Source: Pseudomonadota bacterium (GTDB lineage: Bacteria; Pseudomonadota; Gammaproteobacteria; Burkholderiales; Rhodocyclaceae). Taken from it: a stretch of 64,000 nucleotides of DNA. Where the stretch lies: positions 23,840 to 87,839 of the forward strand of contig JBDRPN010000002.1 of assembly GCA_043826925.1 (NCBI GenBank). The letters run 5' to 3'. Shown piece after piece: positions 41,172-45,369 of this stretch (within the stretch, counting starts at the first letter, position 1; each line of letters opens with the position of its first letter). A program made the position numbers and the translations under genes. The notes beneath the pieces are model-generated. The model worked only from the letters and a program-made list of their open reading frames with translations. It made no database searches and was not told where the DNA came from.

Positions 41172-41254
41172 CGGGGGATACCGTCTCCGCCCTCCGGTTG
41201 GAGACATAAAAATTTTGGAATTGCGCGGGCGGCGGCATTGCTATGCTTGCCGCC

Positions 41255-42781
41255 ATGTCGCAACGGCTGACCCTTTCCCGCGCCGCGCATCTGCTCGGCA
41301 TCTCGCGCATGGCGCTGCAAAAGCGCATCCGCGAGGGCGAGCTGCCGTCCTTCGACGGCATGGTGAGCGTTGATGAGCTGCAGCGCGTCTGGCCGCAACT
41401 CGATCTGGACGAGTCGGGCAGCTTCGAAAAGACCCGCGCGATTCGCGAGGATGCGTTCGCCAGGCGCCTGCGCGAGCGCGTGCTGCCCAGCCAGGAGGCG
41501 CTGGCCCGGCGCCTGTTTGCGCAGGGACAGGAACTGGCCGAACTGCAGCGCACCCTGACGCGCTACCACGCGCTGTTCGAGGCCTTGCAGGCGCGTCTGG
41601 CCGCCGCGCCGGCGCCGGGCGCGGAAGAACTGGCGCAACTGCTCGACGAAGGCCTGGCGCAGGCATTGGCGGTCCCGGCGCCGCGCGCGGACGTCAGCGC
41701 GCTCGATGCTATGCTGCGCGTCATGTCGGCGCACGTCACGGTCAGGCCATCGGGCCACGAGTTCTTCGTCGAGGGTTCCGAGACCCTCCTGAAGGCGGCA
41801 TTGCGCGCCGGCCTGACGCCCAATTACGGTTGCGGCAACGGTTTGTGCGGCCTGTGCAAGGCGCGCGTGGTGGCCGGCGAGACGCGCGCCATGGCGCCTT
41901 CCGACTACCCTTTTTCCGCCGCCGAGAAGGCCCAGAACCATGTGCTGATGTGCGTGTGCACGGCGCTCAGTTCCGACCTGGTGCTGGAGGTGCTGGAAGC
42001 CGGCGCGCCGGAGGACATTCCCGAACAGCGCATCGTCGCCAAGCTGCGCAGCGTCGACCGGCTGAACGACGACATGCTGCGCCTGCATCTGCAGACCCCG
42101 CGCAGCAACCGCCTGCGCTTTCTCGCCGGGCAGCGGGTCACCCTCGGCCTTCCGGCCGGCGTCGCCAGCGGCGCCGACCTGCATGCCGAATACCCGATCG
42201 CAAGCTGCCCCTGCGACGACCGCAACCTGATTTTCCATATTCCGAGTCCGGCTCGCCGTGGCGGACTCTGTCCGCCGGGGATTCCGCTTCGCGGGCCGGC
42301 GAGCGCCAACTCTCAGGGCGATCCCGCGCAAGGCTTTGCCGAATGCCTGGAGGCCGGCCTGGTCAAGGCCGGCGACGATCTCTCGGTGTGGGGGCCGTGG
42401 GGCAGCTTCGTGCTCGACCGCGGCTCGACGCGGCTGGCGCTGGTATTCATCGCCATCGACGAGGGTTTTGCGCCGATCAACAGCCTGGTCGAACACGCGA
42501 TTGCCGAGGATGCCGCCGAATCGATCACCCTCTACTGGGCCAGTTCCCGGCCGGGCGGCCAATATCTGCCCAACCAGTGCCGCGCCTGGGCCGCCGCGCT
42601 CGACGAATTCAGCTACCTGCCGCTGGACCTGGCCGAATTGCCGGCGGCGCTGGCGGCGAACGCCGCACTGGCCGCCAGCGACATCTATCTCGCCGGCGCG
42701 ACGCAGCAGGTCGAACCGCTGGCGGCAACGCTGCGCGCGGCCGGCCTGCCGTCGCGCCAATTGCATATCGAGGCACTATGA
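41255..42781 (+). CDS. Excisionase-type HTH + coiled coil + [2Fe-2S] ferredoxin + FAD/NAD-binding reductase fusion
   Basis: LTLSRAAHLLGISRMALQKRIREGEL (HTH_17-like); YGCGNGLCGLCK...VLMC ferredoxin motif; FLAGQ, GPWGSF, GFAPINS. Confidence 0.85.
   Translation: MSQRLTLSRAAHLLGISRMALQKRIREGELPSFDGMVSVDELQRVWPQLDLDESGSFEKTRAIREDAFARRLRERVLPSQEALARRLFAQGQELAELQRTLTRYHALFEALQARLAAAPAPGAEELAQLLDEGLAQALAVPAPRADVSALDAMLRVMSAHVTVRPSGHEFFVEGSETLLKAALRAGLTPNYGCGNGLCGLCKARVVAGETRAMAPSDYPFSAAEKAQNHVLMCVCTALSSDLVLEVLEAGAPEDIPEQRIVAKLRSVDRLNDDMLRLHLQTPRSNRLRFLAGQRVTLGLPAGVASGADLHAEYPIASCPCDDRNLIFHIPSPARRGGLCPPGIPLRGPASANSQGDPAQGFAECLEAGLVKAGDDLSVWGPWGSFVLDRGSTRLALVFIAIDEGFAPINSLVEHAIAEDAAESITLYWASSRPGGQYLPNQCRAWAAALDEFSYLPLDLAELPAALAANAALAASDIYLAGATQQVEPLAATLRAAGLPSRQLHIEAL
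42263..42311. repeat. Dispersed 49-bp repeat, copy 2, in frame inside the reductase CDS
   Basis: 44/49 match to 176-224; encodes part of PSPARRGGLCPPGIPLRGPASANSQG. Confidence 0.8.
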
Positions 42782-42830
42782 CCATGAGCGAACTTAAAGT
42801 GAAATACATTGCCAAGCACGCCGTGTCAGG

Positions 42831-42904
42831 TTCGAGCGCAGCGAGCCATTTGATAGCCTCCCCCGCGAGGGGGAGGACGGGAGGGGGCGGGCCCATTTGC
42901 CAGC
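42831..42904. repeat. MITE/REP-like element, left copy of an inverted pair
   Basis: Reverse complement closely matches 43662-43732; internal hairpin cctccccc-gcga-gggggagg. Confidence 0.85.
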
Positions 42905-42970
42905 TTGATGCGTTACGACAACAAGGTATTTCATAATGTGCGATAGTTCATCGAAGCCAAGGGCGTGCCC

Positions 42971-43351
42971 ATGACCCAGACACGCCGCACCATACCGATA
43001 CAAGCGCAGGGCGCGACTTTGGAAACCCCCGCCGAGCTCGATGCCTGTTCCTCGGCCGAGCCCTTCGCGCTGATGGTCCTGGGCGACAGCATGGCGCCGG
43101 AGTTTGTCGAAGGCGAGGTGATCCTGATCGAGCCCGAGGGGCTGGCGACCGACGGTTCCTTCGTCCTGGCGCAACTGGCCGGCGAGTGGATCTTCCGCCA
43201 GCTGGTCCGCCATGATGCGGGCTGGCGCCTGCAGGCGCTGAATCCGGCCTATCCCGCCGCGGATATTCCCGGCCTCGACGCGGTCAAAGGCGTCATCATC
43301 CAGAAATCGCAACCCGGGCGGCGCCGGGCCACCAAACGTTACGTAGACTAA
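42971..43351 (+). CDS. Stand-alone S24/LexA-like peptidase-domain protein without HTH
   Basis: FALMVLGDSMAPEFVEGEVILIEP, WIFRQL, LQALNPAYP, VKGVII. Confidence 0.8.
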   Translation: MTQTRRTIPIQAQGATLETPAELDACSSAEPFALMVLGDSMAPEFVEGEVILIEPEGLATDGSFVLAQLAGEWIFRQLVRHDAGWRLQALNPAYPAADIPGLDAVKGVIIQKSQPGRRRATKRYVD

Positions 43352-43366
43352 AGCCCACCGAAAACC

Positions 43367-43600
43367 ATGCCCTACTACATCTATCGTGTCACGCCCATCG
43401 GCCCCGTCCAGCAGCTCGCCAGGATCAGCCAGTTCGAGGTATTCAAGGACGCCTCGAACGAAGCCAAGCGCCTGCGCCGCGAAGCCGAACTCGGCGCCGG
43501 CGAAAAGATCAAGACCATCTTTGCCGCCAACGAACTCCAGGCGGAAGAGCTCCTCAACGAGCCACGCGGCGAGGAGCCGATGACCGGCGAGGACTATTAA
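43367..43600 (+). CDS. Small hypothetical protein (77 aa)
   Basis: MPYYIYRV...FKDASNEAKRLR...IFAANELQAEELL; plausible codon usage; follows the S24 gene by 15 bp. Confidence 0.7.
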   Translation: MPYYIYRVTPIGPVQQLARISQFEVFKDASNEAKRLRREAELGAGEKIKTIFAANELQAEELLNEPRGEEPMTGEDY

Positions 43601-43661
43601 CGCCCATGACTTCGATGAACCACACCGCCTCATGAAATATCGCACTTTCGATAAGCTGCGG

Positions 43662-43732
43662 GCTGGCAAATTGGCCCGCCCCTCCCGTCCTCCCCTCACG
43701 GGGAGGCTACTGATTGGCTCGCTGCGCTCGAA
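43662..43732. repeat. MITE/REP-like element, right copy of the inverted pair
   Basis: Near-identical reverse complement of 42831-42904 with a few substitutions and single-base indels in G/C runs. Confidence 0.85.
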
Positions 43733-43774
43733 AATTTGCATCCGCACTGGCCAAGGTATTTCAAGTTAGCCGTC

Positions 43775-44227
43775 GTGGTCGACGAAACCGCCTTTCGTCA
43801 CACCAGGGAAGACATCAATCGCCTGCCCTGCGTCTTCGAGCGCGCGCTGCTGGCGCGCCACGCGGCCTGCGAGCTGGCGCAAAGTCACCAGATTGCCGAG
43901 CGCGAGAGCATCGCCTGCACGCAGGCGGCGGCGCACCAGGCCTGCAGCAGGATGTCGCAACTGCTGCGCGAGAAGTCCAGCTTCGCCCTGCACCTGACCG
44001 CCACCCAGCGCATCCTGCCGCACGCGATGATGATGAAAATCCAGTGCGGCGGCCTCGATGGCCTCAAGGCCCTGCTCGATGCCGACGCCGCGGCGCCGCA
44101 GGTTGATCGCCTGCTGCGCCTGGCGCAGGAGCGCTACGGCGATCTCGATGCACTGCCCTTCTCCGAGATCGTGCAGGGTGTGGCGGCATGGAAGGCGCGT
44201 CGTCGCCATCAAGGAGCGCCGCGATGA
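43775..44227 (+). CDS. Cys-rich hypothetical protein
   Basis: PCVFERALL...ACELA...ESIAC...QAC...KIQCGGL; GTG start inferred; stop overlaps the next ATG. Confidence 0.65.
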   Translation: MVDETAFRHTREDINRLPCVFERALLARHAACELAQSHQIAERESIACTQAAAHQACSRMSQLLREKSSFALHLTATQRILPHAMMMKIQCGGLDGLKALLDADAAAPQVDRLLRLAQERYGDLDALPFSEIVQGVAAWKARRRHQGAPR

Positions 44228-45255
44228 TTGCCGGCATGGCGGCGCTGGTCAACGCCGTACAGACCAACTGCGACATCGCCGACGCCCGCCATGCGCGCGA
44301 CGTCAGCCTGTGCACCTATCTGCTCGGCATGCGCGAGTTCTATCGCTGGGAACACCAGTTGCCCTACGGCGTGTCGCCGCCGCGCGAGGAAGTCGGGCGC
44401 TGGATTGCCGAGCGCGAGGCGCGCTGGGAACTGATCGCCGCCGATGACTTCGTCGCCGTGCCGGTCGCCGGTCGCGAGTTCGATCCCTTCGCCGCGCAGC
44501 AGGTCAATGCCGCGCTGGCCGGCAGCGGGCTGGTCTATGGCGCGGGGCTGGGGCGCTTCCACAAGCCGCACTTCTTCCTTGGCCAGCTCGACCGCGAGGA
44601 GCAGCGCGGCGAGGCGCACCTGCTGGTCTGCGGCTGCGAATATGCGCGCGACGTCTCGGCGATTCCGGCAGCATCGCAGGGTGCCACCCTGATCGTGCGC
44701 CGCGAGGCGCTGCGGCAGTGGCTGTGGGAAAAGGCCGAGGGCTGGAACGTCAAGCAGCAGGACGGTGCGCTGAAATCGGCCCTGCTCGCTTATGGCTTCG
44801 ACGTCGATCCGCAGGCTGCCATCGAGCGCATGACGGACGGCGAGATCGAAACCCTGGTGCTGCACGAGGAAGGCGAATTCGCCGCGGGCCGCATGCTGGG
44901 CCACGAATGGACCGACAAGCTGGCCGGCTTCAGCGGCAAGCGCGCCGAACTGCTGGCGCGCGCGGTGCGCGACAACCTCGCGGATTGCCTGGTGACGCTG
45001 CCGGCACTGTTGCAGCGGGACGCGGCGGACTCGCTGCATTTCTGGTTTTCGACCTTCGACGGCCTGCGCCGCGAACTCTTTCCGCGCCTGGTCGAGGCCT
45101 ATGGCTCAAGAGTTGGCGCTGGCGACCCGGCGATCCTGGCCGCGGCGGCGACTGCCGGCCGCACGCATTTCACCGCACTCGGCCGGCGCCTGCTCGATCT
45201 CGACGAAGCCGGCATCGAGGCGCTGTCCCACCAGCCTGCGGCAATCGCCCTGTAG
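44224..45255 (+). CDS. Conserved hypothetical protein, Sfum_1244-like family (recalled assignment)
   Basis: VQTNCDIADARHA, LCTYLLGMREFYRWE, GLVYGAG, KPHFFLG, RAVRDNLADC. Confidence 0.7.
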   Translation: MIAGMAALVNAVQTNCDIADARHARDVSLCTYLLGMREFYRWEHQLPYGVSPPREEVGRWIAEREARWELIAADDFVAVPVAGREFDPFAAQQVNAALAGSGLVYGAGLGRFHKPHFFLGQLDREEQRGEAHLLVCGCEYARDVSAIPAASQGATLIVRREALRQWLWEKAEGWNVKQQDGALKSALLAYGFDVDPQAAIERMTDGEIETLVLHEEGEFAAGRMLGHEWTDKLAGFSGKRAELLARAVRDNLADCLVTLPALLQRDAADSLHFWFSTFDGLRRELFPRLVEAYGSRVGAGDPAILAAAATAGRTHFTALGRRLLDLDEAGIEALSHQPAAIAL

Positions 45256-45304
45256 GGCCGACTTCAGTCGGCCAGGGTGGATGGCGGACTGAAGCCGGCC
45301 CTAC
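45252..45304. repeat. GTAG-family REP doublet, copy 1
   Basis: GTAGGGCCGACTTCAGTCGGCC...GGCGGACTGAAGCCGGCCCTAC. Confidence 0.9.
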
Positions 45305-45369
45305 GCCCGCCCCAAGCCCTGTCCCACGGCAGAACCATTTTGCCGGCGCCGCTGCACTAGACTTCGCCG

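Follow-up and report, generated by a model that had tools for sequence, protein, structure and literature searches.

We propose that a five-gene cluster (g1–g5, positions 41255–45255) in a 64,000-nucleotide stretch of DNA (the window; contig JBDRPN010000002.1 of assembly GCA_043826925.1) from a groundwater Sulfuritalea-like metagenome-assembled genome (MAG) belongs to a lineage-specific module of accessory genes for the reverse dissimilatory sulfite reductase pathway (rDsr) in beta-proteobacteria (GTDB Burkholderiales, wide sense), of which it is the Sulfuritalea copy; we hold this reading to be reasonably probable. The five genes are one evolutionary unit, which appears and disappears with dsrAB, and a functional tie of the module to rDsr is very probable. 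The gene set matches no described system, and its function is deduced here from genomic context.

The cluster consists of five co-oriented open reading frames (ORFs) on the + strand (41243 to 45255 in the ORF list of the window), flanked upstream by an ORF for a PilY1-like protein of 1676 amino acids (aa) and downstream by a MATE transporter gene. The genes, the repeat copies between and within them, and a terminal hairpin are as follows:

41255..42781, + strand: g1 (ORF opens at 41243), protein with a helix-turn-helix (HTH)-like N-terminus, a long linker, a [2Fe-2S] ferredoxin domain and a degenerate FNR-like module (Pfam, PDB profile, alignment)
42243..42320, + strand: in-frame repeat-derived insertion of ~12 aa (GLCPPGIPLRGP) in the FNR-like module of g1 (alignment and blastn)
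42782..42964, no strand assigned: copy of a dispersed repeat, resembling a miniature inverted-repeat transposable element (MITE) or repetitive extragenic palindrome (REP), filling the g1-g2 spacer (blastn, inverted-repeat search)
42965..43351, + strand: g2, stand-alone S24 domain similar to the C-terminal domains of lambda CI, LexA and UmuD, with a basic tail (PF00717)
43367..43600, + strand: g3, protein of 77 aa, N-terminus MPYYIYR, C-terminus acidic (30-orthologue alignment)
43601..43774, no strand assigned: second dispersed repeat copy, in inverted orientation, filling the g3-g4 spacer (blastn, inverted pair)
43775..44227, + strand: g4, 150-aa protein with five invariant Cys (alignments, AlphaFold2, Foldseek)
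44224..45255, + strand: g5, Sfum_1244/DUF6866 protein of 343 aa (NF045620, PF21739 and PF21740)
45252..45304, + strand: hairpin with 23-nt arms, directly 3' of the g5 stop codon (inverted repeat)

The same-strand run of five genes described in an earlier sequence-only reading of this DNA is therefore real, in that all five ORFs are present, with the start of g4 corrected (see below). The ATGA overlap that it reported for the last two genes is likewise found in the sequence, the g4 stop codon TGA lying within the ATGA that starts g5.

Conservation of the gene set and its association with dsrAB

A genome-collection scan based on g5 yielded 80 Rhodocyclales loci, and the order g2-g3-g4-g5 is kept in all of these related loci whose contig reaches far enough, an arrangement that is far beyond chance. 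In Sulfuritalea-like genomes g1 is directly upstream of g2; in Sulfurisoma, Methyloversatilis-like and other genera it is 2.6–3.8 kb further upstream, and genes for AAA_5, DUF2201, Z and 82-aa proteins lie between. The family of g5, Sfum_1244, is represented in 4 of 401 genomes of a phylum-wide sample (all four in the window's order) and in 63 of 401 genomes of an order-wide sample, many of which carry g5 alone at its locus. Co-occurrence was assessed by profile searches of 64 module-positive and 16 negative genomes. Among the positive genomes, g2 was detected in 57, full-length g1 in 56 (and in three more was cut by contig ends), g4 in 53, where it is always preceded by g3, and Z in 47; each of the four was detected in 0 of the 16 negative genomes. 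In many genomes the genes lie well apart from one another; they are at four separate loci in Sulfurimicrobium lacus (g5, g2, g3-g4, and g1), which is a named module-positive member along with Sulfurirhabdus autotrophica, a Sulfuricellaceae MAG, and Usitatibacter. The five genes thus constitute a conserved set, as the sequence-only reading had supposed, clustering or co-occurring in more than 60 genomes with the neighbourhood order kept.

In view of this distribution and of the named members, dsrB was searched for in the same order-wide sample of 401 genomes. It is present in 83 of them; Sfum_1244 occurs in 62 of the 83 dsrB-positive genomes and in 1 of the 318 dsrB-negative genomes (odds ratio ~936, Fisher p 3e-53, uncorrected for phylogeny or shared ancestry), the sole discordant Sfum_1244-positive genome being a 76%-complete MAG. 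In the window's own family, six module-positive genomes all have dsrB and four module-negative genomes all lack it, and the isolated positive genome in family f2 (G349) carries dsrAB. A link to sulfur-oxidising proteobacteria, which the sequence-only reading had tentatively suggested, is therefore strongly supported, both by the presence of dsrB in 62 of the 63 Sfum_1244-positive genomes and by physical joins to the dsrAB locus in several families. Its statement that no pathway can be assigned to any of the genes is superseded, since rDsr now provides that context.

The physical joins are of two architectures. In genomes G349, G488, G651, and G725, an array divergent from dsrAB runs Cas6-like, DsrC-like, (TusA-TusA), p202, TauD-like, g1, g2, g3, (g4), g5; the same array reaches only g1 in G580, and the five genomes represent four GTDB families. 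In the second architecture (families f101, f129, and f133), g5 and a shorter g2-like S24 gene lie beside dsrAB, in a cluster that also holds three DsrC-like genes and genes for TusA, a Sel1 protein, two 2-oxoglutarate-Fe(II) oxygenases, and an Alvin_2107-family "globule sulfur oxidation" protein. The window genome has the proximal half of the dsrA-divergent array (Cas6-like (TIGR02807), tandem TusA, DsrC-like, p202, and TauD-like) at C51:76.9–80.1 kb, next to dsrAB at C51:74.1–76.6 kb, and the distal half as the window cluster, on a different contig. Its dsr operon, of which dsrN and a cobA-like gene are the last members, includes neither dsrR nor dsrS.

According to a passage of PMC7596348 that cites Lenk et al., the TauD-like gene upstream of dsrA is dsrQ. 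Similar to the accessory dsr genes (dsrQ/tauD-like, dsrR, dsrS, and dsrN), g1–g5 are outside the catalytic core and genomically tied to dsrAB, being directly 3' of dsrQ in several genomes; unlike them, none of g1–g5 is homologous to a named Dsr protein. An identity of g5 with DsrS of purple sulfur bacteria was considered and is unlikely, as judged by distribution rather than by sequence, given the absence of Sfum_1244 from dsrB-positive genomes outside the order (see below).

Of the companion genes, AAA_5 encodes a MoxR-like ATPase, DUF2201 (DUF2201_N/DUF2201) a protein with metallopeptidase-like and von Willebrand factor A (VWA)-like parts, and Z a protein of ~345 aa; in most families other than those with the dsrA-divergent array, all three accompany the module. 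In Rhodocyclaceae relatives the operon runs g1, AAA_5, DUF2201, Z, the 82-aa protein gene, g2, g3, g4, g5, with the companions placed within the operon in Sulfurisoma and G382. The window genome encodes AAA_5, DUF2201, and Z on another contig (C5:43165-46650) and not in the window cluster; there they adjoin a divergent ORF of 1120 aa (C5:39635-46650). Genomes with the dsr-adjacent architecture lack Z, and the MoxR-VWA pair is also missing from that architecture. MoxR AAA+/VWA pairs, such as NorQ-NorD, CbbQ-CbbO, and CoxD-CoxE, remodel or load metalloenzymes. The AAA_5 and VWA-containing DUF2201 genes are comparable to these pairs in being co-operonic or co-occurring with the module in relatives; they differ in the metallopeptidase-like N-terminal domain of the DUF2201 partner, and in that the pair is outside the window cluster.

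The dsrA-divergent region has further features of its own. A Cas6/Cmx6-family gene (TIGR02807 above cut-off; PF09559) lies divergently beside dsrA in 25 of the 26 beta-proteobacterial dsr loci that were inspected (all but G531, where it was not detected), with or without the five-gene module, and no CRISPR context was seen; it is located at C51:76925-77521 in the window genome and at L086:4541-5113, and was also found at L152, L153, L154, L155, and L157-L176. The divergent promoter region between dsrA and this gene contains a palindrome, TACCC-N4-5-GGGTA (C51:76576-76595), which is unique in the window genome and recurs upstream of dsrA in 20 other genomes. Between the palindrome and the cas6-like gene lies a conserved small ORF of ~85 aa (...RFTIFDIDP...).

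Predicted proteins of the module

The g1 ORF encodes 512 aa counted from 41243, and its orthologues begin at the Met of 41255. Residues 165–512 are collinear with class IB ferredoxin-FNR reductases (BenC, T4moF, and MmoC), with a plant-type [2Fe-2S] domain followed by FAD- and NAD-binding modules; the resemblance is to BenC/PRK05713-type and MmoC-type enzymes, with clear overall homology to BenC and T4moF, and PDB profile matches (T4moF, BenC, and others) are confined to residues 162–490. The ferredoxin domain is recognised by Pfam (Fer2, E 3.6e-12), and its ligands C197, C202, C205, and C237 (CX4CX2C...C) are invariant among 15 orthologues. Unlike class IB reductases, the g1 family does not keep the FNR motifs: in the alignment, RxYS is replaced by (E/D)YP(I/V)AS and GGxG by xDxGFAP, the C-terminal CG motifs are unconserved, and the invariant motifs SCPCDDRN and QCRAW are gained. 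A further difference is an extra N-terminus of 160 residues that includes the HTH-like segment. Residues 9–37 match HTH_8 (19.4 bits, cut-off 22), HTH_17 (18.8 bits, cut-off 27), and TIGR01764 (16.2 bits, cut-off 28.8), all below cut-off, and a PDB sequence search returned no match for residues 1–160; the segment is invariant in the alignment, and the long linker before the ferredoxin domain is conserved. A redox-linked role for g1 is plausible from its sequence, because the HTH-like segment is invariant and all four [2Fe-2S] Cys ligands are kept.

By analogy, g1 may be compared with SoxR, in which an HTH and a [2Fe-2S] cluster are likewise combined in a single polypeptide. SoxR belongs to the MerR family, is small, and carries its cluster at a C-terminal CX2CXCX5C motif, whereas g1 has a ferredoxin domain and an FNR-like module, and no detectable homology to SoxR. 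In Sulfurimicrobium-type genomes, a gene for an 80-aa CDGSH-type iron-sulfur protein lies 3' of g1 on the same strand (L135:2638-2880, L139:2777-3019). Depending on the genome, the gene for an unannotated family of ~100 aa (EERILxAVKxTLAGVIxDTATP...) lies immediately 5' of the g2-like S24 gene, follows g1, or adjoins g5 (L143:4755-5072, L145:8424-8720, L153:8652-8897, L134:7835-8131); the family may be a further member of the network.

For g2, Pfam identifies Peptidase_S24 alone (PF00717, E 7.7e-17), with no N-terminal domain, as the sequence-only reading had noted in describing an S24 domain devoid of a DNA-binding part; ~30 poorly conserved residues precede the fold. Among proteins of solved structure, g2 is closest to the C-terminal domain of lambda CI (E 1.3e-11), to LexA, and to UmuD'. 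Similar to LexA, lambda CI, and UmuD, g2 has the S24 beta-fold, and the Ser motif GDSM is kept in the window and in 23 of 24 aligned orthologues; the Ser is lost in some, replaced by Ala in L037 and by Tyr (DDYM) in G499. Unlike those proteins, g2 lacks a DNA-binding domain, a cleavage site, and the catalytic Lys, and has an extra, conserved basic C-terminal tail (QKSKPGRRKAxKRYVE). The catalytic general base is K156 in LexA and K192 in CI; the corresponding position in g2 is Arg78, invariant in 24 orthologues. The LexA sequence in this alignment is provisional, and the Lys-to-Arg result is independent of it, in that HMMER aligns FRQL of g2 with FKKL of CI against PDB CI chains. No Ala-Gly or Cys-Gly cleavage site was found in g2, the aligned segment being C-S-x-A-E-P. 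Thus, g2 is probably a non-proteolytic S24 fold, as far as its sequence indicates.

The sequence-only reading had gone further, in supposing that the two halves of a LexA/CI-type regulator were redistributed between g1 and g2. A split LexA/CI regulator is not supported, given the change of the catalytic Lys to an invariant Arg and the missing cleavage site; in addition, the Ser is sometimes lost, and nothing ties the HTH of g1 to g2.

No family in Pfam or NCBIfam was found for g3 or g4. The g3 protein has 65% mean column identity among 30 orthologues; its gene is always directly upstream of g4, and the two remain paired when parted from the other genes. The listed g4 ORF is 43736-44227, and comparison of 28–31 orthologues places the start at a GTG at 43775 (150 aa); five Cys are invariant in the same orthologues. 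The AlphaFold2 model of g4 has a predicted local distance difference test score (pLDDT) of 88 and a predicted template modelling score (pTM) of 0.81, and Foldseek found no relative of it in the PDB (best E 1.1, TM ~0.2).

The g5 protein matches NF045620 (Sfum_1244) with 420.3 bits (cut-off 150), and both DUF6866 domains are covered (PF21739, DUF6866_N, 202 bits; PF21740, DUF6866_C, 193 bits). Its invariant residues include the N-terminal C16 and C30, H214-E215-x-G217-E218, and D250 and D254. The AlphaFold2 model (pLDDT 94.7, pTM 0.91) likewise had no relative in a Foldseek search of the PDB (best E 1.3, TM <0.2). PDB sequence-profile searches with g3, g4, and g5 gave chance-level matches only (e.g., CutA, E 7e-4 over 65 residues), and hhalign detected no homology of g5 to p202 or Z. 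The models of g4 and g5 therefore appear to represent two folds that have no match in the PDB, and characterised relatives are lacking for three of the five proteins. In the literature, a search for Sfum_1244, DUF6866, and the gene set as such brought up no paper, and only dsrQ is named there. Distant Sfum_1244 homologues had no conserved neighbours, bar one of 90 aa: in an apparent anaerobe, the homologue is followed by a gene for a 90-aa protein with a weak match to ThiS, a sulfur carrier (L148:2243-2515; L147:11145-11417).

Repeat elements within the cluster

The two long spacers of the window cluster are repeat copies and are outside the ancestral operon. The repeat in the g1-g2 spacer (42782-42964) has 29 blastn matches in the draft genome and forms an inverted pair with 43700-43732; that in the g3-g4 spacer (43601-43774) has 35 matches, one of which is within the dsr operon (C51:66763-66922). 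The dispersed unit is ~110–160 bp long, has ~30 copies in the genome, and occupies both cluster spacers in opposite orientations. The MITE copies in the cluster are recent insertions that close relatives lack, the g1-g2 gap being 14 nt in a relative that is 96–97% identical (L001). The insertion within g1 (42243-42320; ~22 blastn matches of its DNA in the genome) is shared by the window and L019 (81% identical), and is missing in L001 (96% identical) and 12 other orthologues, a pattern that points to independent insertions at a hot spot or, alternatively, to precise loss.

The hairpin after g5 (45252-45304) has arms that are 91% complementary and a 7-nt loop. It was not called in a terminator scan and is without a T-tract, and the 120 nt around it (45250-45369) match ~30 places in the genome; the hairpin is therefore probably an element of the REP type, which may double as a terminator.

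Function of the module

The products of the module may make up a cytoplasmic machine of thiol and Fe-S proteins whose role is to keep the Dsr sulfur relay in working order. This is proposed because conserved Cys residues are numerous, the [2Fe-2S] site is retained, DsrC-like and TusA genes are neighbours, and a MoxR/VWA pair is associated with the module. In such a machine, g4 and g5, with five and two invariant Cys, respectively, would be the sulfur- or metal-handling core, and g3 a small partner of g4; g2, as a catalytically dead S24 fold, would be a protein-binding adaptor. The g1 product, a [2Fe-2S] protein whose FNR-like module lacks the flavin and NAD(P) motifs, would report or transmit redox state, and its HTH would probably also bind DNA, tuning expression. 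The MoxR/VWA pair would act by remodelling or loading a target: DsrAB, DsrC, or a relay protein, for example. We put the chances at about even that the module includes a DNA-binding redox sensor (g1), and slightly short of even that it serves chiefly in maturation, repair, or sulfur handling and is not purely regulatory. More tentatively, g1–g5 together with (in most lineages) the MoxR ATPase, the DUF2201/VWA protein, and Z might be an unrecognised multi-protein machine, with two new folds and a pseudo-protease, on which beta-proteobacterial sulfur oxidisers would depend to sustain rDsr: for instance, an activase or a repair system acting on DsrAB or DsrC, or a complex for both sensing and handling persulfide that links the status of the sulfur relay to expression via g1.

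Several observations weigh against a module dedicated to rDsr. Sfum_1244 is absent from 21 of the 83 dsrB-positive genomes in the order, and from 57 of 57 dsrB-positive genomes sampled outside it; the module is therefore regarded as a lineage-specific accessory and not as a core Dsr component. The more distant homologues of Sfum_1244, which make up 886 clusters at 50% identity, stand alone in unrelated contexts, some of them in apparent anaerobes; because they are solitary and not linked to dsr, the basic activity of Sfum_1244 is probably more general than Dsr. The window cluster is itself not near dsr, but is placed after the pilY1-like gene, and the sole metatranscriptome of the same study contributes no contigs here. 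The HTH assignment of g1 draws on sub-threshold Pfam matches and conservation, and the domain should be read as putative. A search of three genomes for a motif common to the sequences preceding the dispersed g1, g2, g3-g4, and g5 units found none: the top 14-mers reached scores of 30–31, compared with 29–32 in shuffled controls.

A purely regulatory system would have g1 as a redox-sensing transcription factor, g2 as a LexA/CI-like partner acting in trans, and g3–g5 as signal inputs, the set switching dsr or other genes. This would accommodate the invariant HTH-like N-terminus of g1 and the long, conserved linker before its ferredoxin domain, as well as the position of g1 as first gene of the Rhodocyclaceae operon and at the junction with the dsr-divergent array; the palindrome conserved in the dsrA divergent promoter region, unique in the window genome, might then be an operator. 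However, self-cleavage inactivation as in LexA cannot work in g2, which has neither the Lys nor a cleavage site, and the dispersed units have no shared upstream motif beyond that of shuffled controls. Similar palindromes are present in dsr-positive genomes that lack the module (G436, G509, G417, and G608), so that the palindrome does not single out g1 and the protein that binds it is probably something other than the module. Furthermore, five to nine strongly conserved proteins, including a MoxR ATPase and a VWA protein, would be unusual for a simple switch. We consider a purely regulatory role unlikely. The redox-sensing regulatory system put forward in the sequence-only reading is thus upheld in part: the HTH-like segment and the four [2Fe-2S] ligands of g1 are invariant, but no shared operator was found, and a purely regulatory function is unproven.

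An explanation by co-inheritance, in which the dsr link reflects shared ancestry or co-transfer and the module does an unrelated job, such as thiol/redox housekeeping, would fit the housekeeping neighbours in many genomes (secA, tpiA-secG-nuo, mutY, pyrC, and mnmE/mnmG), the distant Sfum_1244 homologues that are not linked to dsr, and the lack of a phylogenetic correction in the phyletic statistics. It is improbable, given that module and dsr switch together within single families (f1, f90, and f100) and in the isolated f2 genome G349, and that the module has repeatedly been fused with the dsrA-divergent operon, in four families, and with DsrC-like and TusA genes in the second architecture. 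Still more remote is an origin as the remnant of a mobile element, prophage, or defence island. The HTH_17/excisionase-like match in g1, the CI-like S24 fold of g2, and the MITE copies within the cluster might be cited for it, and MoxR-VWA pairs occur in some conflict systems. However, PADLOC gives no match for g1–g5, DUF2201, or the 82-aa protein, and only marginal P-loop matches for AAA_5; no phage or integrase genes are nearby; and the MITEs are recent and missing in close relatives. The genes are stable, single-copy, and chromosomal in many families, where they follow a metabolic pathway, and a mobile or defence origin is very improbable.

The preferred reading, an accessory module of rDsr, bears on a pathway of major importance for sulfur oxidation among beta-proteobacteria of freshwater, groundwater, and wastewater, such as Sulfuritalea, Sulfuricella-type genera, and Sulfurirhabdus. 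The published inventory of its components derives for the most part from Allochromatium. A set of five to nine conserved genes tracking dsrAB so closely implies that a piece of the pathway is missing in this lineage, whether in maturation, repair, sulfur delivery, or control. For the uncharacterised DUF6866/Sfum_1244 family and five-Cys family of g4, a testable context is gained, and g2 shows how an S24 fold can be reused in nature without its protease chemistry. In metagenomes, the module genes could serve as extra markers of beta-proteobacterial sulfur oxidisers of the Dsr type.

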